Source: Calditrichota bacterium (GTDB taxonomy: Bacteria; Electryoneota; AABM5-125-24; Hatepunaeales; Hatepunaeaceae). From it: DNA of 59,702 bases. Made by a program: the position numbers and the translations under genes. Each line of letters starts with the position of its first letter. Position 1 is the first letter of the stretch. The stretch is from contig VGIQ01000003.1 in NCBI GenBank assembly GCA_016867835.1, positions 1-59,702 of the forward strand, written 5' to 3'. Positions 5,256 to 51,052 of this stretch are shown here, one piece after another. Below the pieces are notes generated by a model. The model was not told the DNA's origin. It saw only the letters and a list, made by a program, of their open reading frames with translations, and did no database searches.

Positions 5256-6164
5256 TCAGGCCGCTTCCATACGTCGCCTGAGATGAGCCCAGTCTTCGTC
5301 GATCCAATTCTGAATCTGCAACCGCTGTTCCGGTGTGAGATGCTTGAATCGCCCCTGTATTCTAAGGTAGTCGCTCACCGGCCGGGCCGGAGGATCGAGC
5401 GAGAGCATAAACCGGCGGCCGTCGAAGACCTCGTAGAGGGGGAAAACACGTGCTTCGACGGCGTAGCGCGCTTCGAGGATGGAGTCCTTTTCGACCGCCT
5501 TATGCCCCGGCGGGCAGGGCGAAAAAATGTGGATCAGGCGGAAGCCGGTCATATCCCGTGCGCGCTCAAACTTGCGGACGAGGTCGTCGGGCCACGCCAG
5601 CGTCGCCGTTGCCGCATAAGGTATCCGATGCGCGGCCATAATCTCCATCAGGTTCTTTTTGCGCTCGCGCTTGAAATCGTCGCCCGGCGTCGTCGTCGTC
5701 CAGGCTCCCCACGGCGTTGCCGATGAGCGCTGAATACCCGTGTTCATATAGGCTTCGTTGTCATAGCAGACGTATATGATGTCGTCGTTTCGCTCAGCAG
5801 CCGCCGAGAGTTGCCCGAAGCCGATGTCGAAGGTTCCGCCGTCGCCAGCCCAGGCGACGACGTTCACTCCCTTCTTCCCAGTCGCATTGAGCCCGGCACG
5901 GACTGCTCCGGCGGTGATGGCCGCTGTCTCGAACGCCGTCTGATAGACCGGCACCCCCGATGCTGAGTAAGGAAACGGCCCGTCGATCACTGCCCAGCAG
6001 CAAGCCGGAATGACCAGAATCGTCTCGCGCCCCAGCGTCTTTAGTGCCAGTCGCATAGCGAGCGCCGCACCGCAACCGGGGCAGGCGACATGGCCGGGAT
6101 GCATAATCTCGCACCCCGGTATGGCCGGATAGTTTTGTAGATGAGGCAGAGGACGCATGGGCAA
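5256..6164 (-). CDS. porB: 2-oxoacid(pyruvate):ferredoxin oxidoreductase beta subunit (TPP-binding)
   Basis: CPGCG near the N-terminus, GDGGTFDIGFGQLS TPP motif, and a CYDNEAYMNTGIQ-type segment. No alpha, gamma or delta subunit genes are nearby. Confidence 0.7.
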   Translation of the reverse strand: MPMRPLPHLQNYPAIPGCEIMHPGHVACPGCGAALAMRLALKTLGRETILVIPACCWAVIDGPFPYSASGVPVYQTAFETAAITAGAVRAGLNATGKKGVNVVAWAGDGGTFDIGFGQLSAAAERNDDIIYVCYDNEAYMNTGIQRSSATPWGAWTTTTPGDDFKRERKKNLMEIMAAHRIPYAATATLAWPDDLVRKFERARDMTGFRLIHIFSPCPPGHKAVEKDSILEARYAVEARVFPLYEVFDGRRFMLSLDPPARPVSDYLRIQGRFKHLTPEQRLQIQNWIDEDWAHLRRRMEAA

Positions 6165-6493
6165 GTCGGGTGAAATTGGCAGTTGAAACCCGCTGGGGCA
6201 ACATTCATCAAAGCAAGAATAGTGCCGCAGTACCTTCCTTACTTGTCCCCCCGCTCACGGGGGGACTACAGGGGGAATATACAGTTAGTCTTGTGAAAAA
6301 GCGTGCAGTCGTATTGTATTGGCGGGTGGACCCTTCGTCCACTTGCACCACATCTCCCCGCTACACGCCAGACTGGGTGTCCGGGGGCACGATTCGATTT
6401 CATCTGGAATGCCCTTCTTCGGTCGAGACGCTCACTGCGTTCAGCATGACAAGTGCCCTGCTAATACTTAGTGCACCAGGCAATATCCCTCGA

Positions 6494-7804
6494 TCACGGC
6501 CCCATTCGCCTTCTCCTCACCATAATCAACACCAACAGGAGCGCAGTGACTGCCACCATAGCCAGGCTGATCCGGTCGCGGACGTTGTCGCGCCGGACGG
6601 CACGTTCCCGTTCACGCCAATCGGGAACCGGATAGACAGCTCTCGCAGACGCCAAAACGCGCGGCCAAACGACGCTCCAGGTGCCGCTGCGCAGTTGCAT
6701 TGCAGAGGTTTGCATGCGATTCTGATTGTAGTAACCGGGGAAGTCGGTGAACTCGACCGGGCCGACTGCTGTCCTAAGCGACGTCTCAGCGAGTGCTTTA
6801 CGAATGAGCGACCGCTCTTCGCCGCCGGAATGGGTAAGGACATCACCGACGACTTCCATCGCAGCATAGCCCAGCGCTGCGAGCGGATCGGGATCGTCGC
6901 CTTTGCGACCCGGTCGCCAGTGACGGAGAAACTCCTGCGCCGCCGGACGTGGATCATCCGCGGTCCAGATAACCGGGGCGAAAATCCAACTCGATGTGCC
7001 TTCCGAGAGGGCGATCAAGCGGTAGCTTGCGAGTCCTGTCGTCCCCAGCAGGAAGGCGAACGGCATAAATCGCTCTGATCGCGCCTGCCGTAAGAATCGG
7101 GCTATGTCTGCGGTCTCGCCGAAAAGCCAGACTGCGGCCGGTTTCTGAGGCTTAAGCAGCGACAGCAACGGGGTGAAATCCTCCAGTCCCGGGGCAAACC
7201 GGATCCGGTCCACCCGGCCCCGCCATACCCGGTTAAGGTCGCGCTCAAGGTCGTCTATCGCCGGCGCTGCGGATGTAGACTCGCTGCCTACGATTGCCAG
7301 AGGTTTGCGGTTGCCAATAGTCGTCATGGCCCAGCCGACCAGACCTTCATTCTGCTCCGAAGCCGGTGGCGCAATGCGGAAGATCCACTCGCGATCCTCG
7401 GCCGACAGACTGTCGCCCGACGCTGCGTCGATCAGATAGGGCAGGCGGAAAGTCTCGGCAATCCGGGCTATTCGGTAGGCCGATGAGGAAGGAAATCCAC
7501 CGACCAAGAGTATCACGTTGCGCTGATTCGCAAGGGAGATGGCGAGCGATTCGGCTACTGCCGGATCGGAGCGGGTGTCAAAGGTGAGTAACACCACCCG
7601 GACATCGGATGGGCGGGATGTTCGCCATCCAAGATGATAGGACCTGTGCAGCGTCCGGCCGGCCTCCTGATAGGCGCCGGTTAAGGGGACCAAACAGGCG
7701 ATCTTCGCAAATTCATCCGGCTCTTCAGATATCGCACTACGAACCGTAAACAGCAAACAGAAGAAGATCGAGTCGATTAGCACTCGAGGGCCGAACCGGT
7801 TCAT
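6494..7804 (-). CDS. periplasmic ligand-binding protein, type 1 (LivK/ANF-receptor-like) with C-terminal TM anchor
   Basis: N-terminal signal peptide, NVILLVGGF...RLPYLID pattern of Leu/Ile/Val-binding-type SBPs, and a C-terminal hydrophobic helix LAMVAVTALLLVLIMV followed by RRRR. Confidence 0.5.
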   Translation of the reverse strand: MNRFGPRVLIDSIFFCLLFTVRSAISEEPDEFAKIACLVPLTGAYQEAGRTLHRSYHLGWRTSRPSDVRVVLLTFDTRSDPAVAESLAISLANQRNVILLVGGFPSSSAYRIARIAETFRLPYLIDAASGDSLSAEDREWIFRIAPPASEQNEGLVGWAMTTIGNRKPLAIVGSESTSAAPAIDDLERDLNRVWRGRVDRIRFAPGLEDFTPLLSLLKPQKPAAVWLFGETADIARFLRQARSERFMPFAFLLGTTGLASYRLIALSEGTSSWIFAPVIWTADDPRPAAQEFLRHWRPGRKGDDPDPLAALGYAAMEVVGDVLTHSGGEERSLIRKALAETSLRTAVGPVEFTDFPGYYNQNRMQTSAMQLRSGTWSVVWPRVLASARAVYPVPDWRERERAVRRDNVRDRISLAMVAVTALLLVLIMVRRRRMGP

Positions 7805-7867
7805 CTCCGCCCCGGCTGTTTCAACGTCAACTTCCCGGCATGAGTCCGATTCCGGCCGTCCGCCGCG

Positions 7868-8632
7868 TCAGACCAGCCAGTCGAGGTAGAGTTCGATGAA
7901 GTGCACGACCGCGTTGATGGCTCCAATGTTGCGCAATTTCAGCCAGATGCCGGGGATGTTCAAGAGCACGTTGAAACCGATGGCTATCATCACCAGTGCC
8001 CCGATCATGATCGTCGCCAGCCGCCGGAAGTGCTTTAGGCTGAAGATGCCGAGCCGCTCGAGGTAGAACCGGAACCGCACGTCGTCGAGCCATCGCGGAT
8101 CGAGAAACAGCCCGGCTATCGACCAGGCAAAGGCGAGATACCAACCAACTATCACAATGACCGCCGGGAAGTATTCGAAGTAGAGGCTTATCCCGCCATA
8201 GGAGAGCGCGGTAATAAGTCCCAATACGATGGCACCCAGGGTCGCCTTGCGGATGTTGCGAATTCCGGCCCGTTCGCGGATGATGAAGTCCGTCCCATAA
8301 GGCAGCCGGATCGGGAGGTGAATCCGCACCGACATGTCGATTAGGATTCCACCGAGGGAAATCCCCAATATCGCCAACAGCAGACTATCCACGAGGTAGC
8401 CAAGCAGTTCCCCCCGGCCGGCGAATAGTTCTATGAACCCGACCGCCAGTACCAGAACTCCAAACCAAATTGACCAGAAGATCGCGCCCTTATCCTGCAG
8501 GCCCTCGATCGACGATTCCACAAACAGGAACCATTTCGTCGGCTCGGGAAGTTGCTCACCGCAGTGCGGACACTTCCAGTTGACCGGAATCTTGGTTACG
8601 TAGGTCTTGCACGAGTTGCACTTGAGTGCCAT
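7868..8632 (-). CDS. membrane protein with N-terminal zinc-ribbon (CxxC...CxxC) and about 5 TM helices
   Basis: MALKCNSCKTYVTKIPVNWKCPHCGEQL followed by multiple hydrophobic segments. No recognisable family. Confidence 0.45.
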   Translation of the reverse strand: MALKCNSCKTYVTKIPVNWKCPHCGEQLPEPTKWFLFVESSIEGLQDKGAIFWSIWFGVLVLAVGFIELFAGRGELLGYLVDSLLLAILGISLGGILIDMSVRIHLPIRLPYGTDFIIRERAGIRNIRKATLGAIVLGLITALSYGGISLYFEYFPAVIVIVGWYLAFAWSIAGLFLDPRWLDDVRFRFYLERLGIFSLKHFRRLATIMIGALVMIAIGFNVLLNIPGIWLKLRNIGAINAVVHFIELYLDWLV

Positions 8633-8683
8633 AAGGCCAATTAATGCTGCGGGTTGATGTCGAGTCCGCCCCCCGGACGGCGG

Positions 8684-9688
8684 TTAGAGCGTGAACGCAA
8701 ATCCGAAACGTTGAACGCTGCCCAACGCTCCGAGCGAAAGTATCGCATAGTCGAGGCTGGTGGGGCCGAAGCCGATCCCAAAGCCAAAGGTGAAGCCGGA
8801 AAGTGTGTCGCGCCGATGGCCGACCCGCTGGTCGCGACCCTGACTGCCGTAACCGATCCGTAAATAGAGCGGTTTACCGCCTCCCGAAGGAGTAATCTCA
8901 AACTCGCCCCCGGCAGCAAATGCCAAATCGGGCTCGCCCGGCAGCATCCCGGCCCGCCACTCGCCTTCGCCCCTGGCTCGCATGAGCGTTGTCAGATGCA
9001 GCGTCAGCGGCAAATGCTGCAGTTTCTTCGATCCTCCCAGACGCAGTTCGGTCGGCAGGGGATCGGTTCCGGTTCCGTAGCCGTCCCACTGACGGCCGAG
9101 ATTGACCATCGCCGCGCCCAGGACGACATCCTCCCATTGCAAGTCGTAAACAAGTCCTGCGTCGAAAGCGTAGCCCGCCGCGTCCGCTTCAGCCAGCCGC
9201 CCGGAGATCATACCTGCCGTCAAGCCGCCGTATAGTCGGGGATAGAGTTCACCGGCCCAACTCACGCCGTAATGATACTCCGCCGCTGCAAGCGTCCGCC
9301 CGGTCGGACCCAGGTCGCGCTGCGATTCCTCGATGCTCCCGTAGTCGAGGGACTTCAGGAAAAGCGCTGCCGTGCCATAGCGAAGCGGCTGTTGATAATG
9401 AAGACGACCACTCCAGATAGCAGCCGGATGAGTGCCGTAAGCGGCTGTCGCGAGTCGCTCGCCAGTCGCGAGATTCGCCGGATTGCAGTCTGTAAGCAGC
9501 ACCTTGCCCGGCGCGGCAACCGGCGCACCGGCGAGCGCTGCGGCTCGCGCATTGACCGGAATTGCCAGAAGTGGAAAGCCGGTTCGCCCGGCAGCCATCG
9601 CTGCATTCATTCCGCTCGCCAGCACCAGCGCGATGAGCGCTCCGCTGCAGGCGGTTCTTTTTGGTTTAATGTGGATGAATCGGCTCAT
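8684..9688 (-). CDS. putative outer-membrane beta-barrel protein (PorV/PorQ/FadL-like)
   Basis: Signal peptide, alternating amphipathic beta-strand-like segments rich in G, Y and aromatics, and a C-terminal FGFAFTL. Start placed at the internal MSRF to limit overlap with the upstream gene. Confidence 0.4.
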   Translation of the reverse strand: MSRFIHIKPKRTACSGALIALVLASGMNAAMAAGRTGFPLLAIPVNARAAALAGAPVAAPGKVLLTDCNPANLATGERLATAAYGTHPAAIWSGRLHYQQPLRYGTAALFLKSLDYGSIEESQRDLGPTGRTLAAAEYHYGVSWAGELYPRLYGGLTAGMISGRLAEADAAGYAFDAGLVYDLQWEDVVLGAAMVNLGRQWDGYGTGTDPLPTELRLGGSKKLQHLPLTLHLTTLMRARGEGEWRAGMLPGEPDLAFAAGGEFEITPSGGGKPLYLRIGYGSQGRDQRVGHRRDTLSGFTFGFGIGFGPTSLDYAILSLGALGSVQRFGFAFTL

Positions 9689-10652
9689 CAGATGGATCGA
9701 CCGGGGTCTCATCGTCGTCTTCTTCCTCCAGCCATTTCCTGAACTGTATCCGTTTACGAATCCAGACCGCGATTACGGCAACCATCGCCAAGAGAACAAT
9801 CCCGATCCAGATCAGGTTGTCGAGGTCGAGCAACGCCAACCCGCGATAGCGCTCCTGCGCCTTCTCGAGCCATTCGGCTTGCCAGTATTCGTATTCAACC
9901 CCGGTTACGGCGTGAAAAACCGCATCGAAGGGACGGTCGGGAGAAGTCTCCTGCAACAGGCGCCGGACGGATTCCCATCCGAATCGCTCAACGAACGATC
10001 CCGCAGCATAGCGCGCCTCAATGTAAGCCAGTTCAGCATCCGGCGCGGAATACTGTAACACGTCGTCGATTCGGGGCAGCCCCATCAGCCGGTTCGCCAC
10101 TGCGGCGCGACCGAGCGCTCCCAGCGATCCCGCCCGGCTCTCACCCGCCAACACCTGGCAGAGACCTTCCTCTAACCACTTCGGTATCCCCCCCTGGCCG
10201 CCATTGGCAACATGGATCAGGATGTGCCCGATCTCGTGGGCTGCGGTAACGCTTATTGGAACGCCGCCCGGTATGGTGTGCGCCGGTCGGATGACGATCC
10301 GTCTGCGGTCCGGGTAGGCAATCCCCCCGGCCCACTCCGGCGCGCGCCCTCCGGTGATCCGGACGAACTCGCTGCGCGACGGCGGAAGATCGATCCGCAC
10401 TTCGTCGGGCAGCGTCGCTCCGAGCGTTGTCTCCATTCCGACACGGAGCGATTGCAGCGCCTCGTCAAGTTGACCCAAAAATCGCTCGTCTTCACCGGCA
10501 TAGTAATATACAAAAGGGGGACGGGGAACAATGCGATACGAGGTCTGCGCGCCAGCCCTGACGGACATTAGCAGCATCAGCCACAGCCCGACGGTGAGTC
10601 GGGGCAGCCATTGGGTATACCATCTAAACATGATGTTAACTGAACAGTTCAC
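9666..10652 (-). CDS. membrane-anchored MA-clan zinc metallopeptidase-like protein
   Basis: HExxH (AAHEIGHILIHV) followed by WLEEGL as a candidate third ligand, an N-terminal signal/TM and a C-terminal TM (IWIGIVLLAMVAVIAVWI), and an acidic tail. Confidence 0.5.
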   Translation of the reverse strand: MNCSVNIMFRWYTQWLPRLTVGLWLMLLMSVRAGAQTSYRIVPRPPFVYYYAGEDERFLGQLDEALQSLRVGMETTLGATLPDEVRIDLPPSRSEFVRITGGRAPEWAGGIAYPDRRRIVIRPAHTIPGGVPISVTAAHEIGHILIHVANGGQGGIPKWLEEGLCQVLAGESRAGSLGALGRAAVANRLMGLPRIDDVLQYSAPDAELAYIEARYAAGSFVERFGWESVRRLLQETSPDRPFDAVFHAVTGVEYEYWQAEWLEKAQERYRGLALLDLDNLIWIGIVLLAMVAVIAVWIRKRIQFRKWLEEEDDDETPVDPSDEPIHPH

Positions 10653-37173: not shown

Positions 37174-40100
37174 CTACGAGCGCCCCTCCACAATCGCAAT
37201 TTCCTTCTCTGTCAAGCCGTAAAGTTCATAGACCGCGCGGTCGATGGCGCGCTCGACTTCGGCAAGTTGCGCCTCGAGTCGGCGGCGCTCGGCAAGGCCG
37301 GGGGAGATAAGTATACTGTCCTTGATTCTTAAGGCATGATCTGTTAGGCCCGTAATAGCCAACTTATTGCCATTTCCGGAAGTGGGAACCGAGACCATAT
37401 ATTGTCGTATTTGTCTTATGCGACCCTTCATATCAGGATCACCTAATACAGCTGAATGGCGTAATAAGTATTGCCAAACAGCCTTCGAGTTTAGTAATCC
37501 TGTAAGGAATAGATCATTTGTAGGCATAATGTAACACGTTTGAATCGAATATAAGCCATGAATGTCGTAGGCAAACCTACTTTCCATAGCAATATCGGGC
37601 CAAATAATCTTCGGTTTGAGAAATTCATCGTAATAATCGCATGCTCTCAATTCCCACCAGTGTTTGCCTTGATCCTGACGCTTTTCAAGTTGCGGTTGAT
37701 AGTCCTTAAGATGATCGAAAATTAGAGGATATTCTTCAATATCAACTCCTATTTTAGTCATAATCAAGTATCTGTCCCGATAGTTAACCCGCCATTTGCG
37801 CACATCGTCGCCCTTGACGAAGGGGACGATGATCTCCGACGATTTCGGATCCTTGTCGATGAGGCGCTGGCGCTGTTCGGCGGTGATGACGAAAGCTTCG
37901 TTAAGCCCGGTCTTTATACCATAGTATATTTGATTACCTACATACTCCCCGAGCGGCTTTCCCGCTTCCCGCATCTTCTCAAACACGTCCACCAAGCCTC
38001 TTTGCACCAAAGTGAAACCTGTAGGTGACAAAGCCCCTGCCGAAAGCGGGAACGCGGAGTCTTCGAAGATCGCCCTAATCTGTTTTGCTTGAACATCGTT
38101 GCTTTTCGCGGGCAGTTCGGGGATAGCCGCAAAGCGCGGCTCACCTTCCGGCGGCTGCTTCGAGGCGATGACGATCATCGGCATCACTGCGGGTTCGTCG
38201 AAGACCTTTGCCTCTCCGAAATCTACCAGTTTCTCAAGCCGCTTCGCCAGCAGAAACTCCCGTAATTTTTCCCCATAAGCTGCCCGCATCCACTTGTTTG
38301 AAACGATGTAACCGAAACGTCCGCCCTCTCTCATCAGGTTGAATGCCTGCTCGATGAACGCAATGTATAAGTCGGTTGTGGCGCTGGAAGTCGTGAACCG
38401 GACATCCAGAAACTCTTTGACCGCGCCGAGTGATTCCTGCCGGACATAAGGCGGGTTGCCGATGACAGCATCGAATCCTCGCGGCTCGCCGGGATGGAAG
38501 AAGACTTCGGGAAAGGCAAGTTCAAAGTGAAAGAATCGATTGCGGTGTCTAATGTCTCCTGCGTCATCGGGGAGTTTGTCTCCGCCGAGCAGTTTTTCGC
38601 AGAGTTCGGTGTATTTCAACTGGTCGATATCGTAACCGAAATCGGCAGCGGTGCGGAGGTGGGCGATGTTCTCGAAAGGTGAGAGACGCTGCAAGACTTC
38701 GCGGCGGAAAATGGCTTCCTTCTCTTTCACCTGGGGATAGTTGTCGCTCGGCATCTCATGGATACGGCTCAGCGCCTCGATGGCATCGTTAAGCGCGGTC
38801 TGGACTCCTGTGGCTTCGAATAGAGCGCCATCCTTTCTGCGCAGCCTCTCAGGAACGAACCCAAACAAGTCGGTGGTCGATCCAGCAAGCGAGTTTCCGT
38901 GCCGAAGGTGATGGTCGAGGAAGTTGAGCGGATTCGAGGACGTGATACAGGTGAGCCAGAGCGCGAGTTTCGCCAATTCGACCGCCAGATCGTTAAGATC
39001 GACGCCGTAGATACAGGATTCGACCACCCGGCGCCGCCAATAGGCTTTATTGGCCTTGAGATCGTCGGGCTTGTCGGGATTTGCCGGTGCGCTGGTCGGG
39101 TGGTCGGCAATTAGATCGCCGAGGTATTCGGTTGCCCGGACCAGGAAGTGACCGCTGCCCATCGACGGGTCGAGGAGACGGAGTTTGAGGACGCCCTCCG
39201 CGAACGAATTCGGAAGACCCTTTGAAACAGGCTGTGAATCCCTAACCTTTTGAATCAGGGGAGCAAGTGTCTCCTCGATAATATAATCGACCACCCACTC
39301 GGGGGTGTAATAGGAACCGGAGACTTTGCGGTCGCTGCGGGCGCGGGCCTGCTGGCGAACCTCCACGAATTTGATCCTGCCATTAGCGAGTTTCGGCTTA
39401 TATTCGAGTAGTCCTTCGTAGATCGAACCGAGTTGCAGAACGCTGAGCGAGGCGTAATCGATGGTCTCCTTGAAATCGACGGAAATGGTGTCGTCATCTG
39501 AGGAGGGGAGTGGGGCATAGATTAGCCCTTTGAGTAACTGCTGGACGGTATAGTTGCCGAGAAACCAAGCGCCTTTGGAAGTATCAATGGTTGAAATCCG
39601 ATAGTATTTCTTAGGGTCGAATAGTCCGCCATTATAGCGAGGGATACCGAGGCTTTCGCTTCTTGCCTCGTTTTCTCCGTCAATCGTTTTAGAGAGTTCC
39701 ACCAATATTGGCCACATTGTCGTGTGGACATCGTCTTCCGATCGATAACTGGAATTGGGAAGGATTTCCTGATACTGCCTTAGCGAATAAAGTTCGCGAT
39801 ATCTTTTACGCGCGCCGGATCCCCACTTTTGAACTGGAAGTAACTCGCGCGATTCGGCATAGAGGACAAACAGGAGGCGATAGAGAAGGATAAGGCTGTA
39901 GGTAAAGACTTCCTCTATTTGGTCTTCACGGATTTTGTTGTTGACCTTGGGGGTATAGAATCCATTTGCGACGATTTCGGCGAGTTTGAAGACGCGGACG
40001 CGGAGGCGCTCTTCGAGGTCCTGCCGTCGGGCGAGGGACTTGTTCCAGAGCGAATCGAGCCTTGAAAAGCCGTCGTCGCCTTTCGCGAAGGCGCTCCTAC

Positions 40101-40539
40101 CAAAGAGCGCAAGAAAGAGCCGGAGACTGTCCAGATCGGCGAGGACTCTGGAGAGTCTCATCGAAAAATAGGAGGTTACATCGTCCTTGCTGTGATAGAG
40201 TCTCCACTCGTTGCCGTTTGAGAGAATCCCCCAATTGATGGGCGAGCCCGGGCGGTCAGTGAGGTAGTTCCTTATCTGTCGATAATAGGGCAAGCCGGGC
40301 GTTTCGCGGCGGGATTTACGGTCGAGCGGGAGGTCGAACATCTTCGCCTCAAGCAACCCGATGCCTAGTTGGTAACGTTGCTCATCGGGCAGTTGACCGG
40401 ACTGGGTTTTGGCCTCTTCGCCATCATATAGGATATAATCAGGGAAGCCAACCAACTGGAAAGATCGGCGATGGAAGGCAAAGCCGAGCAGGGGGAGGAT
40501 TTTGTCAAAGAGGTCGGTTTCGGTCTGACTCTCGCTCAT
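37174..40539 (-). CDS. Type IIG (Eco57I/MmeI-like) restriction-modification enzyme: fused PD-(D/E)xK endonuclease and N6-adenine DNA methyltransferase with C-terminal TRD
   Basis: 1121 aa. N-terminal FPDYILY...GIGLLEAKMF (PD-ExK), MTase motif I LDPSMGSGHFLV, motif IV GNPPYV (gamma-class order), and a long C-terminal specificity region. Single-polypeptide system. The 3' 600 nt are AT-rich. Confidence 0.8.
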   Translation of the reverse strand: MSESQTETDLFDKILPLLGFAFHRRSFQLVGFPDYILYDGEEAKTQSGQLPDEQRYQLGIGLLEAKMFDLPLDRKSRRETPGLPYYRQIRNYLTDRPGSPINWGILSNGNEWRLYHSKDDVTSYFSMRLSRVLADLDSLRLFLALFGRSAFAKGDDGFSRLDSLWNKSLARRQDLEERLRVRVFKLAEIVANGFYTPKVNNKIREDQIEEVFTYSLILLYRLLFVLYAESRELLPVQKWGSGARKRYRELYSLRQYQEILPNSSYRSEDDVHTTMWPILVELSKTIDGENEARSESLGIPRYNGGLFDPKKYYRISTIDTSKGAWFLGNYTVQQLLKGLIYAPLPSSDDDTISVDFKETIDYASLSVLQLGSIYEGLLEYKPKLANGRIKFVEVRQQARARSDRKVSGSYYTPEWVVDYIIEETLAPLIQKVRDSQPVSKGLPNSFAEGVLKLRLLDPSMGSGHFLVRATEYLGDLIADHPTSAPANPDKPDDLKANKAYWRRRVVESCIYGVDLNDLAVELAKLALWLTCITSSNPLNFLDHHLRHGNSLAGSTTDLFGFVPERLRRKDGALFEATGVQTALNDAIEALSRIHEMPSDNYPQVKEKEAIFRREVLQRLSPFENIAHLRTAADFGYDIDQLKYTELCEKLLGGDKLPDDAGDIRHRNRFFHFELAFPEVFFHPGEPRGFDAVIGNPPYVRQESLGAVKEFLDVRFTTSSATTDLYIAFIEQAFNLMREGGRFGYIVSNKWMRAAYGEKLREFLLAKRLEKLVDFGEAKVFDEPAVMPMIVIASKQPPEGEPRFAAIPELPAKSNDVQAKQIRAIFEDSAFPLSAGALSPTGFTLVQRGLVDVFEKMREAGKPLGEYVGNQIYYGIKTGLNEAFVITAEQRQRLIDKDPKSSEIIVPFVKGDDVRKWRVNYRDRYLIMTKIGVDIEEYPLIFDHLKDYQPQLEKRQDQGKHWWELRACDYYDEFLKPKIIWPDIAMESRFAYDIHGLYSIQTCYIMPTNDLFLTGLLNSKAVWQYLLRHSAVLGDPDMKGRIRQIRQYMVSVPTSGNGNKLAITGLTDHALRIKDSILISPGLAERRRLEAQLAEVERAIDRAVYELYGLTEKEIAIVEGRS

Positions 40540-41142
40540 GCCTCCTTTTTCGGAGTGGGCTTTGATCGACCGCTGGGCTTTGACGACGGATAGGTAAATG
40601 GCAGCCGCCGATTCAAACAGATCTTGAGCCGATTCGGCGGGGACGGCAGCAAGCAGCGTGTCCCGCTGTTCGTTAATGAAATGGGGCGTAAAGATTCCGT
40701 GAGTTTCAAAGATGTCTCCATCGCTGGCAATGGGAGACCCAGGCTGGAGGGCAAGTGAGCCGTTGTCAGGAGGTATGTGCTTGCGTTTGTTGATTTTATA
40801 CTCGATCGGTGAGATTTTCTAATCTGGAAATGAACATGTACCCCCATTCATCTCCCCGCACGTTTGTTACCCATCTCCCCAGACTATAGACCCCCGCAGA
40901 GCGGGGGGATGGAATAGGCAATCCCCTTTCAGTTCCCTCCTGCTGCGCAGTGTGGGATTACTGGATTCCCACCTGCGCGGAGTGCCCCCCTATGGTCCCC
41001 CCGCAGAGCGGTGGATGTGCGAAGAGCAACACCCATGGGTTCCCCTCTACTGTGGGGGAAAAGGGCGGACAGGGATGTCCGCCCTCCGGACGCTCCTTCC
41101 TTTCTGGATTCCCGCCTTCGCGGGAATGACGAAGGTAAACCC

Positions 41143-41913
41143 CTAACTCCCCTCGATCTGCTTTTGCTGCGGGGTGCCCATCAGCGGCTTCAGGATGTCG
41201 ATCGGAATGGGGAAGACGATCGTCGAGTTCTTTTCGGTGGCGATCTCGGTCAGCGTCTGGAGATAGCGCAACTGCAGTGCGATCGGGTCTTTCGAGATTA
41301 CCTGTGCGGCTTCAGCGAGTTTTACTGAGGCTTGCAGTTCGCCTTCGGCGTGGGTGATCTTGGCGCGACGTTCCCGCTCGGCTTCGGACTGCTTGGCCCA
41401 GGCGCGCTTCATTTCCTGTGGCAGATCGACGTGCTTGATCTCTACCGACGAAACCTTCACGCCCCACGGCTCGATATGCCGGTCGATGATTTCCTGCAGG
41501 CGGATGTTGACCTTCTCGCGCTCGGCCAGGAGTTCGTCGAGTTCGACCTGGCCGATCACCGAGCGGAGCGTCGTCTGGGCGAACTGGAGCGTCGCATAGA
41601 GGTAATTCTCGACGGCTACGATCGATTTATTAGGTTCGACGACGCGGAAGTAAATCACCGCATTGACTTGGATCGAGACATTGTCCTTGGTGATGCAGTC
41701 CTGCGGCGGGACGTCGCGCGCTTCGACCCGCAAAGATATGCGCACCATGCGGTCGATGATCGGGATCAGCAGGATGATACCCGGCCCCTTGGCGCCGATC
41801 ACACGCCCGAGCCGGAAGATGACGCCGCGCTCATACTCGTTCAGCACCTTGATGGCGCTGGCGAGGATGAAAATCGCGACGATGACGATGAAGATCGTCG
41901 GGAGGGAAATCAT
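41143..41913 (-). CDS. SPFH/band-7 (stomatin/HflKC-like) membrane protein
   Basis: N-terminal TM, then [11 protein letters not shown]...[48 protein letters not shown], typical of the PHB domain, and a C-terminal coiled coil. Confidence 0.8.
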
Positions 41914-41935: not shown

Positions 41936-42210
41936 GTCGGATTGGAATCCGACCCTACGCAAGGTAATGGTCGGATCGGAATCCGACCCTACGCGATAAG
42001 GCGGATTGGAATCCGACCCTACGCGAAACAGGACACAAATGGTCGGATCGGAATCCGACCCTACGCGATAAGGCGGATTGGAATCCGACCCTACGCGAAA
42101 CAGGACACAAATGGTCGGATTGGAATCCGACCCTACGCGATAAGGCGGATTGGAATCCGACCCTACGCGAAACACGACACAAATGGTCGGATCGGAATCC
42201 GACCCTACGC
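41936..42210. repeat. tandem array of 8 copies of a 25-nt hairpin unit GTCGGATYGGAATCCGACCCTACGC, with alternating 6-nt and 17-nt non-unique spacers (72-nt super-unit x ~3.5)
   Basis: Units at 41936, 41970, 42001, 42042, 42073, 42114, 42145 and 42186. The stem is GTCGGATT/AATCCGAC. The spacers GATAAG and GAAACAGGACACAAATG repeat identically. An inverted single copy is at 52048-52072. Confidence 0.9.
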
Positions 42211-42219
42211 GATAAGAGG

Positions 42220-43572
42220 CTAATCGGTCTGGTGGAGCGCGGTCTTCAAGACCTCCACAAACCGGTCCATTTCTTCGACTGACCGCTTTTCCGTCACGGC
42301 AATGGAGAGGCAGTTCTCCATACCCGGGTAGTCGCGGCCCGGGAGCGGTCCGGCAAGTATGCCGTGCTTGACCAAGCGCTTCTGCACGTCTGCAGCCGGT
42401 CGGGGCAGTTCGAGGAGAAACTCGCTGAAGAACTCGCCGCTAAAGCGGAGACTACAGCCGGGCAGCGCTGCGACCTTTTCAGCCAGATAGTGCGCGCCTT
42501 TGTAAGAGCTGCCCGCTGCACGGCGCAGTCCGTCCCGCCCGACGAGGCTGAGATAGACCAGTGCGCAGAGCGCAATAAGAGCCTGATTGGTGCAGATATT
42601 GGAGGTCGCCTTTTCGCGGCGGATGTGCTGCTCGCGGGTCTGAAGCGTCAGGACGAAGCCGTCGCGGCCGAGGCGGTCTTTCGCACGGGCAACGATCCGG
42701 CCCGGCATGAGGCGGACAAGGTCTTTCTTGACGGCGAAAAGCCCGAGATAAGGCCCGCCGAGCGACATCGGCACCCCGAGCGGCTGGCCTTCGGCGGTGG
42801 CGATGTCGGCTCCCCACTCGCCGGGAGGCTTGAGAAGTGCAAGCGAGGTCGGGTAGGTGGACGACACTACCAGCGCTCCGGCTTGATGGGCGGCCCGTGC
42901 ACATTCGGCTACCGGCTCCAGAAGCCCGAAGTAGTTGGGATGCTGAAGGACCAGCGCGGCGGCGCCTTCGACCGTGGGAGCGAGAGTTGTCAGGTCGATC
43001 CGGCCGTTCTTCAAGTCAAGGGTTCGGACCTCGATGCCGGTAGGGGTGCAATAGGTTGATAGCACCGCCCGGTAGTGCGGGTTGACGGAGCCTGCTACGA
43101 CGACGACCTTCCGACCGGTCTTGCGAACTGCCATCAGGGCGCCCTCGGCGAGCGCGGTGGCGCCGTCATAGTGCGAGGCGTTTGCGGCGTCCATTCCCAT
43201 CAGGCGGCAGACCATGGACTGAAATTCGTATATGGTCTGTAATGTCCCCTGCGCGACTTCGGCCTGATAGGGTGTATAAGCGGTGTAGAACTCAGACCGG
43301 CCGATGATGTGCGATATGGCGGCGGGGATATAATGGTCATAGACTCCCCCGCCGAGAAAGGAGAGCGACTCCGATGCCGGCAGGTTGGTCCCGGCCAGCG
43401 CCTTCATTTCCTTCAAAACCTCGTATTCGGTCAGCCCTGGTGGGAGGTCGAGCGGTTCGGGAAGGTGAAAGCGTTCCGGGATGACCTTGGAGAGCAATTC
43501 GTCAATTGAAGTGACGCCAATGGCGGCGAGCATCGCGGCGCGGTCGGCATCGCTGTGCGAGGTGTAATTCAA
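42220..43572 (-). CDS. gcvPA: glycine dehydrogenase (decarboxylating) subunit 1
   Basis: 450 aa. SFLGGGVYDHYIPAAI, YTPYQAEVAQGTLQTIYEFQSMVCRLMGMD. The partner gcvPB is not present in the window. Confidence 0.9.
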   Translation of the reverse strand: MNYTSHSDADRAAMLAAIGVTSIDELLSKVIPERFHLPEPLDLPPGLTEYEVLKEMKALAGTNLPASESLSFLGGGVYDHYIPAAISHIIGRSEFYTAYTPYQAEVAQGTLQTIYEFQSMVCRLMGMDAANASHYDGATALAEGALMAVRKTGRKVVVVAGSVNPHYRAVLSTYCTPTGIEVRTLDLKNGRIDLTTLAPTVEGAAALVLQHPNYFGLLEPVAECARAAHQAGALVVSSTYPTSLALLKPPGEWGADIATAEGQPLGVPMSLGGPYLGLFAVKKDLVRLMPGRIVARAKDRLGRDGFVLTLQTREQHIRREKATSNICTNQALIALCALVYLSLVGRDGLRRAAGSSYKGAHYLAEKVAALPGCSLRFSGEFFSEFLLELPRPAADVQKRLVKHGILAGPLPGRDYPGMENCLSIAVTEKRSVEEMDRFVEVLKTALHQTD

Positions 43573-45912: not shown

Positions 45913-46473
45913 TTAGCGGACCCGTTCGATATACTGACCGGTGCGGGTGTCAACCCGGATGCGCTCGCCGGATTCGACGAAGAGCGGCACTTGCACGGTC
46001 GCGCCGGTCTCGATCTTCGCGGGTTTGGTAACGTTCGATACTGTGTCGCCTTTGACGCCCGGCTCGCACTGGACGATCGTGTATTCGATGAAGAAGGGGA
46101 TTTCGATAGTGAGCGGCGTCTCGTCGTTGAAGGCGATCTTGACGATCTCGCCTTCCTTCAGGAAGAGCGCGGCATCGCCGACGACGGCTTCCGGCACCGC
46201 GACCTGTTCGAAGGTCTCCTGGTCCATAAACTGGAAGTGGTCGCCGTCGTGGTAGAGGAACTGCATCTGGCGCGGGTCGAGTTTGATGATCTCGATCTTT
46301 TCGCCCGAGCGAAGCGTCCGGTCGATCACCTTGCCGGTAACGATGTTCTTCAAGGTGTTGCGGACGAAGGCGCCGCCCTTGCCGGGCTTGACGTGCTGGA
46401 AATCGACGATGGTCCAGAGCCCGCCTTCAAGGTCGATGACGACGCCCTTTTTGATGTCTGCGGTAGTTGCCAT
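45913..46473 (-). CDS. efp: elongation factor P
   Basis: 186 aa. HVKPGKGGAFVRNTLKNIVTGKV with the conserved modified-Lys loop. Confidence 0.9.
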   Translation of the reverse strand: MATTADIKKGVVIDLEGGLWTIVDFQHVKPGKGGAFVRNTLKNIVTGKVIDRTLRSGEKIEIIKLDPRQMQFLYHDGDHFQFMDQETFEQVAVPEAVVGDAALFLKEGEIVKIAFNDETPLTIEIPFFIEYTIVQCEPGVKGDTVSNVTKPAKIETGATVQVPLFVESGERIRVDTRTGQYIERVR

Positions 46474-46474
46474 T

Positions 46475-46495
46475 CAGATGATGATGATGATGATG
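46475..46495. repeat. (ATG)6 / (CAT)6 trinucleotide microsatellite abutting the efp start codon
   Basis: cagATGATGATGATGATGATGct on the + strand, i.e. CATCATCATCATCATCATctga immediately 5' of the efp ATG on the minus strand. Confidence 0.9.
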
Positions 46496-46509: not shown

Positions 46510-46950
46510 TTAGGTTAAATGTTCGAGGTCATCGAGGTCGCGGTGGCGGCCGGCGGCTCGCTTGTTGGCGATCAGGCTGGCGCGGTCGATGAGGGATACC
46601 TTGATGCCATCGATCTCCACCATCTCTCGCTTCGCAAAGCAGTCGTCGAAATCGACGCCGGAGATGGAGGTCAGCAACTCGATACGCTGCGGCGGAAGCC
46701 CCATACGAATCACCTTGTTCTTCTGAACGAACGACTCCCGGTTCAAGTCCGGCAGATCGAAGCCGAATTCTCGAATTGCCAATACAATTCGATCAGCATT
46801 ATCGGGGTCGATGGCCACCCATAGGTCCATATCCCCTGTCGCGCGCGGGTAGCCGTGAACGCCGACCGCAAAGCCGCCGATGAGCAGATACCTAACTTTG
46901 TGGGAAGTCAACAACTTCAAAAATTCTTTGAAGTCGCTGCTGAGCAAGAT
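46510..46950 (-). CDS. nucleotidyltransferase-fold protein (AbiEii/DUF1814-like short NTase)
   Basis: LIGGFAVGVHGYPRATGDMDLWV (hGG.A...R.T.DhD NTase motif) and a C-terminal KRAAGRHRDLDDLEHL. The start is uncertain; a TTG near 46950 is likely given the overlap with the upstream small ORF. Confidence 0.4.
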   Translation of the reverse strand: MLLSSDFKEFLKLLTSHKVRYLLIGGFAVGVHGYPRATGDMDLWVAIDPDNADRIVLAIREFGFDLPDLNRESFVQKNKVIRMGLPPQRIELLTSISGVDFDDCFAKREMVEIDGIKVSLIDRASLIANKRAAGRHRDLDDLEHLT

Positions 46951-47098
46951 CGCCAAAGTTAACCTTGCGTAAGTATTCGATGTGCGCCAGACGCTCGGCA
47001 AAGGTGCGCGAGCGCCAGTATTCGTCCGCGTCGTCCTTGTCGTTCAGGTCGGCGACGGAGAAATGGGCGCGGGAGAGTGTTTCGGGCATAATGAACAA
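46892..47098 (-). CDS. small hypothetical protein (68 aa) overlapping the NTase-like gene; possible antitoxin-like partner
   Basis: The ORF MFIMPETLSRAHFSVADLNDKDDADEYWRS... overlaps the NTase ORF by about 100 nt in another frame. It has no recognisable domain, and its start lies inside repeat block B. Confidence 0.25.
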   Translation of the reverse strand: MFIMPETLSRAHFSVADLNDKDDADEYWRSRTFAERLAHIEYLRKVNFGDLAQQRLQRIFEVVDFPQS

Positions 47099-47145
47099 TG
47101 ACTAATGACTAATGACTAATGTTGATGCTGAGCTGATGCTGATGG
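47088..47145. repeat. stop-rich heptamer/hexamer repeat block, copy B (ATGACTA)3-ATG-N3-(ATGCTG)n
   Basis: aatgACTAATGACTAATGACTAATGttgATGCTGAGCTGATGCTGATG. About 45 nt align with copy A at 37077-37127. Confidence 0.8.
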
Positions 47146-47274
47146 GCTTCCGAAATATCACCCTGAACGAATTGAAGGGTCTCAACCGGTTGATCGCACC
47201 CCGGTAGGGCGGGAACATAGGCGGTGTAGCCGCCCTCGGGGGAGGGTTCAAGGATGATTGAAGTTTCATTGTCT

Positions 47275-48249
47275 TTATCTCTTTATATTGCCCAAGTTAA
47301 GGTATCCATCCGGCCAACCCTGGTGCTTTCTATGAAAAGGAATTTTCTTTATGATATCGCCGATTCCAATTGTCCTGATCCCCTCCGTTAACAACCATAC
47401 GAGGGATGCCGCTGCCGCCTCAACTAAAAGTATTGCTTCTTGAAGGTAGCGATACTCGGGCAGCGTGTCTTTACCCTTTTGTTTGTTGTCTGTCTTGCAG
47501 ATTTCACTCCAAAATCCTATCCACAGCGACTCTGCCCCAAAGAGTGTGTCAAGAGAAACCTTATATGGTGCGAAAGGCTTCACATAATCACCTCCATTAT
47601 TCGGGCCGTTTTCCCTTTCAATTACTGGCGAGACAAAGTACCACCACTTCGGCTGTCGCTTTGCGTGCTCTATATATCGAGTTGCGAATTCAGATGATTG
47701 ACCTAAGTATAGGCCATTTGGAGTGTTCAGCATATATAGCCCCCTTCGATCTTCGTCCAAATAACTTGGGGGTTTGCCGGTTCCAACAACTGCTTCCATT
47801 ATTGGAAGCGCTTGATATCGAAAAGAAATTCTGTATCGATGAAAATTCTCCTTTTCCGCTCTTGGATCGACCCCAATGAGTATCGCATCTCGCGCCAACA
47901 CTCTGATTCGCAAATGAGATGGCAGGTGCAAGAGGGACCAATGACTACGCCAATAAGTTGCGTCAATCAATTCCAATGGACTCGCTTTTGGATCCTTACT
48001 AAACGATCTTCGTAGCACTTGGAGTCTCTCTCGCGCTGCAGGATCCTTCAAAGGTTCTATTCCGAGTGCTATCCTCGCGTTCTGAAGATATTGGAGTGCC
48101 TCGCCTACCTTCTTCGGTGGAATAGAGGCCCATAAATACTCCCACGCCAATGAGCGCAGGAATACCCTGTCATATGGAAGAAGGGAATCAAGAGTGGTCT
48201 CGTAATTACTCGGGGATTCACCTGCGTCCTTCTTCACTCTAGCACTCAT
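47275..48249 (-). CDS. hypothetical protein (324 aa) with central GIY-YIG-like nuclease motif; low-GC gene
   Basis: RRGLYMLNTPNGLYLGQSSEFATRYIEH (GLY-x8-YLG ... R ... H) at aa 168-195, and a downstream IERENGPNNG (candidate Glu/Asn). Local GC about 45% versus about 62% background. Confidence 0.45.
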   Translation of the reverse strand: MSARVKKDAGESPSNYETTLDSLLPYDRVFLRSLAWEYLWASIPPKKVGEALQYLQNARIALGIEPLKDPAARERLQVLRRSFSKDPKASPLELIDATYWRSHWSLLHLPSHLRIRVLARDAILIGVDPRAEKENFHRYRISFRYQALPIMEAVVGTGKPPSYLDEDRRGLYMLNTPNGLYLGQSSEFATRYIEHAKRQPKWWYFVSPVIERENGPNNGGDYVKPFAPYKVSLDTLFGAESLWIGFWSEICKTDNKQKGKDTLPEYRYLQEAILLVEAAAASLVWLLTEGIRTIGIGDIIKKIPFHRKHQGWPDGYLNLGNIKR

Positions 48250-48269
48250 ACCTCCACCACCTCCTCTTT

Positions 48270-48539
48270 CTAGACGCGGACGGTTAGCGGGGTGCCGGTG
48301 GCTTTGGCGTAGAGCGCGAGCGGATCGATGTCGGCATCGTTGGGCCAGCGAATCGCGCCGAAGTCCTCGTCAATGGTAACTTGACGAAAGTATGCCGGAT
48401 CCCTGAGCGGCGCATAATAATCGCCTTCAAAACCCGTCAATTCTCCAATGTCAACCTCGCCTGATCTGCCGTTCTTGAACCAGACCTTGATCTGGTAGCC
48501 GCCGGTCAGTTCGAAGCGGGTGACGTTTCTCTTTGCCAT
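48270..48539 (-). CDS. DUF2442-family protein
   Basis: VTRFELTGGYQIKVWFKNGRSGEVDIGELTG...APLRDPAYFRQVTIDEDFGAIRWPNDADIDPLALY matches the DUF2442 pattern. Start placed at the internal MAKRNV. Confidence 0.7.
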   Translation of the reverse strand: MAKRNVTRFELTGGYQIKVWFKNGRSGEVDIGELTGFEGDYYAPLRDPAYFRQVTIDEDFGAIRWPNDADIDPLALYAKATGTPLTVRV

Positions 48540-48546
48540 CGAAATG

Positions 48547-48765
48547 CTACCGGCTGCCACCAAACACCAAATCTTCAAGCACGATTTGCCTGAAGGTCTG
48601 TTTATCTCCAAGGCGCGTGGAAGCATCGAGGATTTCAAGCCCCGCAAGATGTCCCTCGGAATCATAGTCAGCGGCTATTCCTTCAGAGAGATGCTCAGTT
48701 GTAACGGTGGCGTCCCGAAATCGAATATAGAGCGCATCGACGCGGGAGTCGTAGGTGATTTTCAT
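48547..48765 (-). CDS. DUF2283-family protein (TA-antitoxin-like)
   Basis: MKITYDSRVDALYIRF...DYDSEGHLAGLEILDAS matches the YDxxxDxLYI...GxxVGIEIL signature. Confidence 0.7.
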   Translation of the reverse strand: MKITYDSRVDALYIRFRDATVTTEHLSEGIAADYDSEGHLAGLEILDASTRLGDKQTFRQIVLEDLVFGGSR

Positions 48766-48768
48766 GAT

Positions 48769-49029
48769 TTACTCGTTGAAATAATAGGTGTATACCGTAA
48801 TGATGACAATCGTGTCGGTCTCAAGAACGAATATTGGTCGAACCTGTTTCAGATGATAACCTATCCCATTCCAAACGTCGTCGAATCTGAAATTTAGCCT
48901 GCATTCATACCGATCTGCTTTAGATTTGATCCACTCTGCAGTTCGTATTGCCTGAATAACTTCTGCAGGGTTTGTGCCTCGATGTCGCATCTGCTCAAGG
49001 GCATGTTCTGAAAACTCAATTTCCTTCAT
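48769..49029 (-). CDS. DUF4258-family protein (TA-toxin-like)
   Basis: MKEIEFSEHALEQMRHRGTNPAEVIQAI resembles the DUF4258 N-terminus. It lies 3 nt upstream of the DUF2283 gene and is AT-rich. Confidence 0.65.
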   Translation of the reverse strand: MKEIEFSEHALEQMRHRGTNPAEVIQAIRTAEWIKSKADRYECRLNFRFDDVWNGIGYHLKQVRPIFVLETDTIVIITVYTYYFNE

Positions 49030-49039
49030 TGATAGATGC

Positions 49040-51052
<2,013 letters not shown>

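Follow-up and report, generated by a model that had tools for sequence, protein, structure and literature searches.

We describe an accessory islet of ~2.5 kb in the 59,702-nucleotide (nt) contig VGIQ01000003.1 of a Calditrichota bacterium, the whole of which was analyzed and is called the window below. The islet fills the interval between the genes for NAD-dependent DNA ligase (ligA) and elongation factor P (efp), and we consider it likely that it is a composite, formed at a ligA-efp insertion hot-spot from five or more small cassettes, independent and unequal in age, rather than from one system. Read from ligA toward efp, these cassettes would be a DUF4258-DUF2283 module of the toxin-antitoxin (TA) type; a DUF2442 gene left over from a DUF4160-DUF2442 pair that is still intact in a syntenic contig (L009); a recently acquired gene for a stand-alone DNA endonuclease of 324 amino acids (aa); a frameshifted, truncated, and dead fragment of a HicB-like antitoxin; and a conserved coupled pair made up of a small open reading frame (ORF) and an overlapping DUF6036-type minimal nucleotidyltransferase (NTase). 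Tight spacing, low GC content, and conflict-type domains are not enough to call such an array a defense system. Its most interesting piece is the 324-aa protein, a member of what appears to be a rare winged-helix/GIY-YIG nuclease family; the overall interest of the islet is modest.

Layout and composition of the ligA-efp islet

All of the islet genes, together with ligA and efp, lie on the minus strand (ORF list). The features, in window coordinates, are the following.

49040-51034, minus strand: ligA (NAD-dependent DNA ligase), 664 aa, the upstream boundary of the islet and outside it
48769-49029, minus strand: DUF4258 protein (PF14076), 86 aa, putative type II toxin of the RelE/ParE superfamily (BECR fold)
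48547-48765, minus strand: DUF2283 protein (PF10049), 72 aa, putative cognate antitoxin of the DUF4258 protein
48270-48539, minus strand: DUF2442 protein (PF10387), 89 aa (MAKRNV...), orphan antitoxin-type gene
47275-48249, minus strand: 324-aa two-domain protein of a rare uncharacterized family, apparently recently acquired
47764-48192, minus strand: N-terminal helical and winged-helix-like domain of the 324-aa protein (~residues 20-162), presumed DNA-binding or DNA-sensing module
47554-47637, minus strand: private insertion of the 324-aa protein (~residues 205-232, IERENGPNNGGDYVKPFAPYKV...), located between beta3 and the Glu-bearing helix and holding ERENGPNNG
47350-47763, minus strand: predicted C-terminal GIY-YIG nuclease domain of the 324-aa protein (~residues 163-300)
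47109-47272, minus strand: probable HicB-like antitoxin remnant (pseudogene), with the frame ...SIILEPSPEGGYTAYVPALPGC... in three-frame translation
47089-47121, no strand: 7-nt tandem repeat, TAATGAC in 4.7 copies (GTCATTA on the coding strand; Tandem Repeats Finder, score 52)
46892-47098, minus strand: orf68, 68 aa from TTG or 65 aa from ATG at 47089, putative antitoxin or regulator and partner of the NTase
46510-46947, minus strand (full ORF 46510-47001): minimal NTase of the DUF6036/DUF2204 type, 145 aa (MLSSDFKEF...), with the motif GG..x..HG..R.T.D.D
45913-46473, minus strand: efp (elongation factor P), 186 aa, the downstream boundary of the islet

The naming of both boundary genes rests on our reading of their sequences, which for ligA includes the KIDG adenylation motif. 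Ten nucleotides separate the ligA stop from the DUF4258 gene, and gaps of 3, 7, and 20 nt then lead from DUF4258 to DUF2283, from DUF2283 to DUF2442, and from DUF2442 to the 324-aa gene; within the last of these gaps, a strong Shine-Dalgarno sequence (GGAGG) precedes the ATG. On the 3' side of the 324-aa gene come a 170-nt stretch without a clean ORF, the 7-nt tandem repeat, and finally the 65- to 68-aa ORF with the overlapping NTase. An initial annotation, made from the letters of the window and a list of its ORFs, had given the gene order, strand, and gaps correctly, and the stop-rich repeat block, the overlapping small ORF, and the NTase ORF that it reported all exist.

The same annotation had called the interval a low-GC islet against a background of about 62%. 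The whole islet does have a GC content of 0.501, against 0.601 +/- 0.022 in windows of the same size elsewhere on the contig (z = -4.6), and as no other such window is lower, it is the lowest-GC 2.5-kb stretch of the contig; the background, however, is ~60%, and the signal is unevenly spread. The DUF4258 gene is the lowest of the islet (GC 0.418, z = -4.4; GC at third codon positions [GC3] 0.425), and the 324-aa gene is as deviant (GC 0.465, z = -4.8; GC3 0.449, versus 0.688 +/- 0.068 in 49 long ORFs). The DUF2283 gene is intermediate (GC 0.516), whereas the DUF2442 gene (GC 0.570, GC3 0.70, z = -0.75) and the NTase gene (GC 0.556, GC3 0.72, z = -1.25) are host-like. Two genes only, DUF4258 and the 324-aa gene, drive the low GC of the islet, which is a compositional mosaic, and this argues against its acquisition in a single event.

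There is no integrase at the islet, as had been annotated, and no nearby tRNA; we found no flanking direct repeats or att-like sites around it and no RNA element within it (Rfam, E <= 1); and consensus promoter and terminator scans of the islet did no better than shuffled controls. None of the six islet proteins matched a PADLOC model.

A widespread TA-type pair beside an orphan antitoxin gene

The three genes that follow ligA were annotated as DUF4258, DUF2283, and DUF2442, and all three calls are correct, with matches above the Pfam cut-offs: PF14076 for the 86-aa protein (E = 3.4e-7, 30.9 bits, cut-off 25), PF10049 for the 72-aa protein (E = 1.7e-17, 63.7 bits, cut-off 23), and PF10387 for the 89-aa protein (E = 6e-16). 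An extended 131-aa ORF at 48270-48665 was considered as the true DUF2442 gene and rejected: its first 42 residues come from reading DUF2283 in another frame, and MAKRNV / MAAEDV is where the Pfam match and the L009 orthologue begin.

We scanned metagenome contigs with the window DUF2283 protein, obtaining at least 579 close relatives, and counted the neighborhoods of the best 80 loci. A DUF4258 gene stands immediately upstream on the same strand in 66 of these. DUF4160 is nearby in one, DUF2442 is downstream in none, and the nuclease family, the NTase, ligA, and efp each occur in none. These neighborhoods lead us to regard DUF4258-DUF2283, transcribed in that order, as a self-contained, widespread two-gene module of the TA type. 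By analogy with its superfamily, the BECR-fold toxin would act as an RNase that DUF2283 neutralizes. PF_DUF4258 is listed in a review of the RelE/ParE superfamily as a BECR-fold TA toxin family whose target is unknown and of which "little is known" (PMC11980606). The window module resembles the type II systems of that review in the tight coupling of a small DUF4258 gene to a small partner gene. It differs in that the partner is DUF2283 and the order is toxin then antitoxin, whereas the review describes antitoxin-then-toxin modules and fusions to MqsA; a Synechocystis DUF4258 example is paired with HicB, unlike the gene in the window.

The sole close homologue of the window DUF4258 protein in a collection of 5.8 billion proteins (P0067, 56-58% identity) is encoded on the 3.3-kb contig L009, which is syntenic with the window and carries the gene in the same place, after ligA. 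In order, L009 holds the C-terminal 458 residues of ligA (65% identity to the window ligA over 411 aa), DUF4258, DUF2283 (82%), a second DUF2283, DUF4160 (PF13711, E = 4.3e-17) directly before DUF2442 (58%), a 95-aa ORF, and, at the contig end, the N-terminus of efp (MSTTADIKNG...KPGKGGAF). The 324-aa gene, the HicB fragment, and the NTase have no relative there. DUF4160 is in turn absent from the window, where tblastn with the L009 protein finds nothing and just 7 nt lie between DUF2283 and DUF2442, and the second DUF2283 is likewise absent.

DUF4160/DUF2442 is the DhiTA type of TA system, known from Dickeya dadantii (PMC8198452), and DUF4160 genes are "typically followed by" DUF2442 genes (PMC12065111). 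The TA-type genes of L009 thus read as two ordinary pairs. The window shares with DhiTA an intact DUF2442 antitoxin-type gene but has no DUF4160 toxin gene, making its DUF2442 an orphan and not a TA system. The most economical reading of the three window genes, which had been annotated as an unusual triad, is one TA pair followed by an orphan antitoxin without its DUF4160 partner; as a unit the triad does not hold, given that DUF2442 follows DUF2283 in none of the 80 loci and that L009 has DUF4160 before DUF2442. The loss of a toxin gene is harmless, and the loss of an antitoxin gene is not. Because of this asymmetry, loss of DUF4160 in the window lineage is, on these two genomes, likelier than its gain in the lineage of L009. 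The window and L009 would then illustrate, in textbook fashion, how a TA pair decays at one chromosomal site, with the antitoxin kept and the toxin gone.

DUF2283 is itself often duplicated in tandem 3' of a single DUF4258 gene: two DUF2283-matching ORFs occur in L009 (1641-2113) and in L080, and three, mutually overlapping as stop-to-stop ORFs, in L074. This suggests that duplication of the antitoxin is common in the module.

One system, three components, or several cassettes

The initial annotation had proposed one compact abortive-infection or defense module, and a case can be made for it: the co-directional genes from DUF4258 to the NTase are tightly spaced on a single strand directly after ligA, the islet overall is the lowest-GC stretch of its size on the contig, and every component comes from a conflict-type family. 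We nevertheless find it very improbable that these genes were acquired as a unit and form one multigene system. None of the 17 other nuclease loci described below has any of the remaining islet genes, L009 has the TA genes without nuclease or NTase, and in the 80 loci counted, DUF2442 never follows DUF2283 and the nuclease and the NTase are absent. In composition, the DUF2442 and NTase genes resemble the host whereas the DUF4258 and nuclease genes look foreign, the array is broken by a pseudogene remnant and a stop-rich repeat, and no PADLOC model matches any of the six proteins. The islet genes are not co-conserved, and a single novel defense module is therefore refuted. We give equally little credence to a genuine three-component TA system in which DUF2442 serves DUF4258 and DUF2283 as a second antitoxin, chaperone, or regulator. 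The genes are intact and only 3 and 7 nt apart, and the islet of L009 also holds DUF2442; there, however, it is preceded by its usual DUF4160 partner, which yields two ordinary pairs. The counts from the 80 loci again speak against the trio, the literature places DUF2442 with DUF4160 (PMC8198452, PMC12065111), and the DUF2442 and DUF4258 genes differ in GC by 15 points.

Several points weigh against the composite islet that we favor. The ligA-efp hot-spot rests on two genomes, and with just one syntenic relative, gain is not polarized against loss. The tight spacing after ligA means that the genes may well be co-transcribed, making regulatory coupling possible. DUF4258 toxins, furthermore, are called undescribed in the literature (PMC11980606), though the metagenome counts supply direct genomic evidence that DUF4258-DUF2283 is a very common two-gene module.

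A rare family of predicted winged-helix/GIY-YIG nucleases

The 324-aa protein itself has no match in Pfam, NCBIfam, PADLOC, or PHROG. Word-indexed homologue searches, which returned only the query and then only P0059, gave the impression of an orphan, and this was overturned by an exhaustive phmmer search of 1.84 billion cluster representatives, in which 65 relatives were found, 14 of them at E <= 1e-30 and most of them 290-320 aa long. Nine residues are invariant in an alignment of 35 sequences (W104, P110, H112, R116, Y181, G183, R191, E240, and E249), the first four of which form a WRLLxLPxHxxVR motif in the N-terminal domain. Residues conserved in at least 90% of the sequences include G170, Y172, H195, and N255, and all signature residues are present in the window protein. 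Together they spell the family signature G170-L-Y172, Y181-L-G183, R191, H195, E240, N255, that is, G-x-Y...Y-x-G...R-x3-H...E...N, which is the GIY-YIG pattern. E240 and N255 are 15 residues apart, a spacing that we take to be the same as that of E75 and N90 in I-TevI.

The GIY-YIG-like pattern reported in the initial annotation, GLY-x8-YLG-x7-R-x3-H, is thus real and conserved in the family, but the ERENGPNNG that was joined to it lies in the private insertion, and the conserved catalytic Glu is E240. The insertion of ~28 residues corresponds to gaps in 32 of the 35 family members, with unrelated inserts at the same place only in P0007 and P0011, and it was modeled at a predicted local distance difference test score (pLDDT) of 65-71.

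Profile searches support the assignment at the level of the family. The Pfam hidden Markov model (HMM) for GIY-YIG (PF01541) is matched by 24 of the 35 members, at best with E = 4.6e-5, and one member matches LEM-3_GIY-YIG at 3.3e-10. When the family profile was compared with PDB sequences, the catalytic domain of I-TevI (1mk0) came first (E = 0.0077 with the full alignment and 0.0051 with the domain alone), although that alignment spans only the first half of the domain; UvrC and SLX1 came next.

With the 35-sequence alignment as input, AlphaFold2 (AF2) gave a confident model (pLDDT 89.9, predicted template modeling score [pTM] 0.90); it was used in place of a single-sequence model, which gave pLDDT 33.6. 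The conserved residues are borne by strands 170-176 and 179-185, helix 188-198, strand 203-211, and helices 233-248 and 266-294. Foldseek found no match below E 0.1 in the PDB or among viral predicted structures, the weak and non-significant matches in the viral library being visibly enriched for GIY-YIG and intron endonucleases. We conclude that the GIY-YIG assignment of the family is well supported by sequence and only modestly by structure comparison. The winged-helix domain followed by GIY-YIG would be a new architectural variant of GIY-YIG nucleases, and it appears undescribed: no curated full-length model matched the family, and literature searches found nothing on it. In such a protein, the N-terminal helical and winged-helix domain would bind or sense DNA, and the C-terminal domain would cut it through a canonical one-metal site of Tyr, Tyr, Arg, His, Glu, and Asn.

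Genomic contexts of the nuclease family

Relatives of the 324-aa protein are encoded at 17 other distinct loci that we could inspect: 8 reference-genome loci of five phyla, 5 contigs with P0059, and the contexts of P0002, P0007, P0010, and P0013, while the locus of P0003 was counted with the Verrucomicrobial set. Neighbors were compared by all-vs-all BLAST at the 8 genome loci and by precomputed Pfam gene tables at the other 9. No DUF4258, DUF2283, DUF2442, or NTase neighbor was seen at any of the 17, and no partner gene is conserved across them all. Recurrent neighbors are specific to lineages: a 123-aa gene and DUF2779 at four Verrucomicrobial loci, and an SNF2 helicase, MazF, and a divergent XRE regulator at two loci each. 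In detail, the nuclease adjoins an SNF2 helicase and a NERD/helicase protein in L002, a PLD protein and an SNF2 helicase in L004, HEPN in L003, a PLD-like protein and MazF in L008, MazF in L098, a gp49-HTH TA pair in L105, and divergent XRE regulators in L010 and L103, the former of which also has a DUF927 primase island. No methyltransferase domain was matched among the scanned or Pfam-tabulated neighbors, here or at the 17 loci, several neighbors being unscanned or matchless.

At 7 of 9 other loci, the GC content of the nuclease gene is 5-13 points lower than that of the flanking DNA. At the four Verrucomicrobial loci (L005:6895-10453, L006:3635-6833, L007:7304-10432, and L101:5609-8402), it occupies the same slot, between the 123-aa gene and the convergent DUF2779 gene; identity among these loci is 85-91% for the flanking protein but only 44-51% for the nucleases, apart from L006 and L007 at 83%. 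Two of these nucleases, those of L005 and L006, carry an N-terminal HARE-HTH extension, and the other two do not. A gene that is solo, foreign in composition, patchy, hypervariable at a fixed locus, and often placed beside TA and defense genes has the profile of a conflict gene, and we accordingly read the family as fast evolving and horizontally moving.

Two further observations concern the Verrucomicrobial slot. The DUF2779 gene is apparently frameshifted in L005 and L007. In L101 (ERZ12293630 scaffold_938_c1), positions 5027-10046 are a five-gene insertion inside the S10 ribosomal-protein operon, flanked by the L23 and L2 genes and made up of a 189-aa gene, the 123-aa gene, the winged-helix/GIY-YIG nuclease, the convergent DUF2779 gene, and a Y-family polymerase (IMS); the nuclease alone is low in GC (0.454, versus ~0.58 in its neighbors).

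Comparison of the 324-aa protein with known nucleases

The closest characterized analogue in logic is PD-T4-3/CMoRE, a type IV restriction enzyme in which one protein combines a GIY-YIG nuclease with a separate sensor of modification (PMC12923530). Both are single genes without a methyltransferase, both join a GIY-YIG nuclease to a separate DNA-sensing domain (presumed in the window protein), and both occur in defense contexts. The order of domains is reversed, with an N-terminal sensor and a C-terminal nuclease in the window protein and an N-terminal nuclease in CMoRE. The non-nuclease domain is helical and winged-helix-like, unlike the CMoRE sensor, which is reported as a fold without known homologues. 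The window protein also lacks the third tyrosine of GIYxY (GLYMLNTPNGLYLG) and has no match to the PADLOC model for PD-T4-3. An acidic loop is inserted over the active site of CMoRE, and the window protein, P0007, and P0011 have inserts beside the catalytic helix, a likeness that is speculative as regards function.

One relative is an apparent chimera of the two families: residues 9-78 of the 285-aa P0016 match the PD-T4-3/CMoRE model at E = 1.3e-28, and the remainder, from ~76 onward, groups with the winged-helix/GIY-YIG family. Either a natural domain swap or a misassembly could account for this protein.

PDC-S14, a single-gene defense candidate of PADLOC that is itself untested, has models weakly matched by 25 of the 35 family members (best 4.4e-6). 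These matches span only the GIY-YIG motif of 30-90 residues, at profile positions 40-137 of ~305, and so in the N-terminal part, whereas the motif is in the C-terminal half in the 324-aa family. Membership in PDC-S14 was rejected on these per-protein coordinates, and the window protein has no match at E <= 10; only the domain is shared. The homing endonucleases of the I-TevI type and the N-terminal domain of UvrC have the GIY-x(8-10)-YIG-x7-R-x3-H core in common with the window protein, which departs from them in having its nuclease domain at the C-terminus, an unrelated helical and winged-helix domain as its DNA-binding part, and no intron or phage context. A type II restriction-modification (R-M) system with a GIY-YIG restriction endonuclease, such as Eco29kI, was also rejected, as no adjacent cognate methyltransferase was found and the sole methylase of the window is part of an Eco57I-type fusion ~6 kb away.

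Defense, homing, or repair

Tentatively, we suggest by analogy that the likeliest role of the 324-aa protein may be that of a single-protein, restriction-like defense nuclease that follows the logic of type IV CMoRE/PD-T4-3 with the domain order reversed. A wider and more speculative proposal is that the whole family could be new single-protein anti-phage restriction nucleases, in which the N-terminal sensor (W104, P110, H112, R116) would recognize a feature common to foreign DNA, either a base modification or a DNA structure, and direct the GIY-YIG cut. The parallel to CMoRE/PD-T4-3 would then have been built the other way round, from an unrelated sensor, extended in some members by HARE-HTH. 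A role in defense is opposed by the absence of any relative from plasmids and from 2.9 million IMG/VR viral contigs, and its grounds are context, composition, and variability only, with no relative experimentally characterized. The nuclease assignment, too, must contend with the window protein matching no GIY-YIG HMM (no PF01541 match at E <= 1).

The main rival for the nuclease is a free-standing selfish homing endonuclease that spreads by cutting nuclease-free alleles of a conserved neighbor gene, without benefit to the host. The GIY-YIG domain is classically that of homing endonucleases, the best profile match is to I-TevI, and among the weak matches are the PADLOC HEase model and the one for group I intron endonucleases (TIGR01453). 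The gene is also solo, low in GC, and patchy over several phyla, and it is found between housekeeping genes, such as ligA and efp here and L23 and L2 in the S10 operon of L101. Those conserved neighbors differ by locus, however, with no common target evident, and the invariance of the putative DNA-binding residues W104, P110, H112, and R116 is a poor fit to changing targets. The domain order is the reverse of that in I-TevI-type enzymes, the gene is tied to neither an intron nor an intein, and the lack of relatives in viral contigs and plasmids counts here as well; we judge homing unlikely. It is decidedly unlikely that the 324-aa gene is a housekeeping rather than a conflict gene, encoding a nuclease for DNA repair or for specific structures in the manner of UvrC or Slx1. 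UvrC and SLX1 are among the profile matches, an ORF upstream in L003 reads as UvrA (by eye from its N-terminus, without an HMM), genes for the Y-family polymerase and a uracil-DNA glycosylase (UDG) lie nearby in L101 and L103, respectively, and the invariant winged-helix residues would suit the recognition of DNA structure. Yet 65 representatives among 1.84 billion proteins make for a rare and patchy family, and a gene that is compositionally foreign in most hosts, absent from L009, and hypervariable at a conserved locus is not expected of a core repair enzyme. The apparently undescribed family is, for us, a candidate for phage defense or for a modification- or structure-specific nuclease.

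A probable HicB remnant and a conserved NTase cassette

Directly 3' of the nuclease gene, one frame reads ...SIILEPSPEGGYTAYVPALPGCDQPVETL... and resembles the N-terminus of a HicB antitoxin. It is ~50 residues long, has no start codon (the ATG at 47270-47272 is one base out of frame), and ends early within the 7-nt repeat. It matches phrog_497 "HicB-like" at E = 0.022 and phrog_11958 at E = 0.0033, and 8 of 9 weak plasmid tblastn matches (E 0.01-0.9) are annotated as HicB family antitoxins. There is no Pfam match, for which reason we call the HicB assignment probable, and no hicA gene is adjacent, so that this is not an intact HicAB system. A frameshifted, truncated, and dead remnant is the probable explanation; an assembly error is also possible. 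The 7-nt repeat places stop codons in all three coding-strand frames, exactly between the HicB remnant and the start of orf68. Slippage, a deletion scar, and an insulator are possible origins.

The last cassette comprises orf68 and the NTase, whose start it overlaps by 56 nt. No match to orf68 exists in Pfam, NCBIfam, or PADLOC, and its one weak match in PHROGs is phrog_10114 (E = 0.0019). Judging from the homologue starts MLNQDFKEF / MFSQDFKEL, the TTG at 46947 is the most likely start codon of the NTase gene. Its Pfam scores fall just under the cut-offs for DUF2204 (E = 7e-4, 19.7 bits, cut-off 20.3) and DUF6036 (E = 0.008, 16.5 bits, cut-off 23.6). Relatives up to 48% identical occur in 21 plasmid records, annotated in GenBank as "nucleotidyltransferase" or "DUF6036 family," and an Acidisarcina homologue (L095, 44% identical) matches DUF6036 at 47.4 bits and DUF2204 at 26.4 bits, with AbiEii below threshold only. 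Small ORFs with the pattern ..YW.S/T..ERL...RLQR.. overlap the NTase start in Geminocystis plasmid pGM02 (L096) and Acidisarcina plasmid pACPOL3 (L095). We infer that orf68 and the NTase form a conserved, probably translationally coupled two-gene cassette, for which a TA-like function is plausible; like the DUF4258-DUF2283 pair, it is conserved without any description. The idea that the two are one frameshifted gene was rejected, as the same two overlapping ORFs recur in distant plasmids.

The NTase had been annotated as AbiEii-like. A minimal NTase it is, sharing the Pol-beta-type NTase signature (GG...D.D) with AbiEii/DUF1814 of the type IV TA systems, and its homologues give sub-threshold AbiEii matches; the window protein itself, however, is DUF6036/DUF2204-like with its own partner, has no AbiEii (PF08843) match at E <= 10, and at 145 aa is well short of the 238 positions of the AbiEii Pfam model. 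Its 65-aa partner has no detectable family, whereas the partner of AbiEii is an AbiEi-family antitoxin, and no islet protein matched an AbiEi-type HMM. By these sequence comparisons, the cassette is not an AbiE system, and its likeness to AbiEii is at the superfamily level only.

In pGM02 (L096:1-3432), the orf68-like/NTase cassette lies inside a type I R-M operon, between the S and R subunit genes, and adjoins a VapC TA pair; the orf68-like ORF bears the erroneous annotation "toxin secretion, membrane fusion protein" in that plasmid.

Other features of the contig

The R-M-bearing region that the initial annotation placed next to the islet is present but ~6 kb away. Its gene (37174-40539) encodes an Eco57I/MmeI-type fused restriction-methylase of 1121 aa (Eco57I E = 1.5e-39, TaqI_C, N6_Mtase) and is separated from the islet by housekeeping-type ORFs that we read by eye, without an HMM, as EF-P, AccB, AccC, GcvH, and GcvP. 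The gene has a GC content of 0.523 (z = -3.7), its start is overlapped over 4 nt by a 103-aa ORF without a family match, and 37174-40847 forms a second foreign islet on the contig. A near-perfect 72-nt tandem repeat (3.5 copies, 98% matches) lies at 41966-42216, between the ORF at 41143-41913 and that at 42220-43572, the latter read as the glycine-cleavage protein GcvP; its unit consists of two hairpin-forming sub-units (CGGATTGGAATCCG) and reads through as a spurious 80-aa "RVGSDSNPPY" repeat ORF. Closer to the islet, a perfect (GAT)6 repeat (CATCAT... on the coding strand) is found at 46477-46495, within the 36-nt spacer between the NTase stop and the start of efp.

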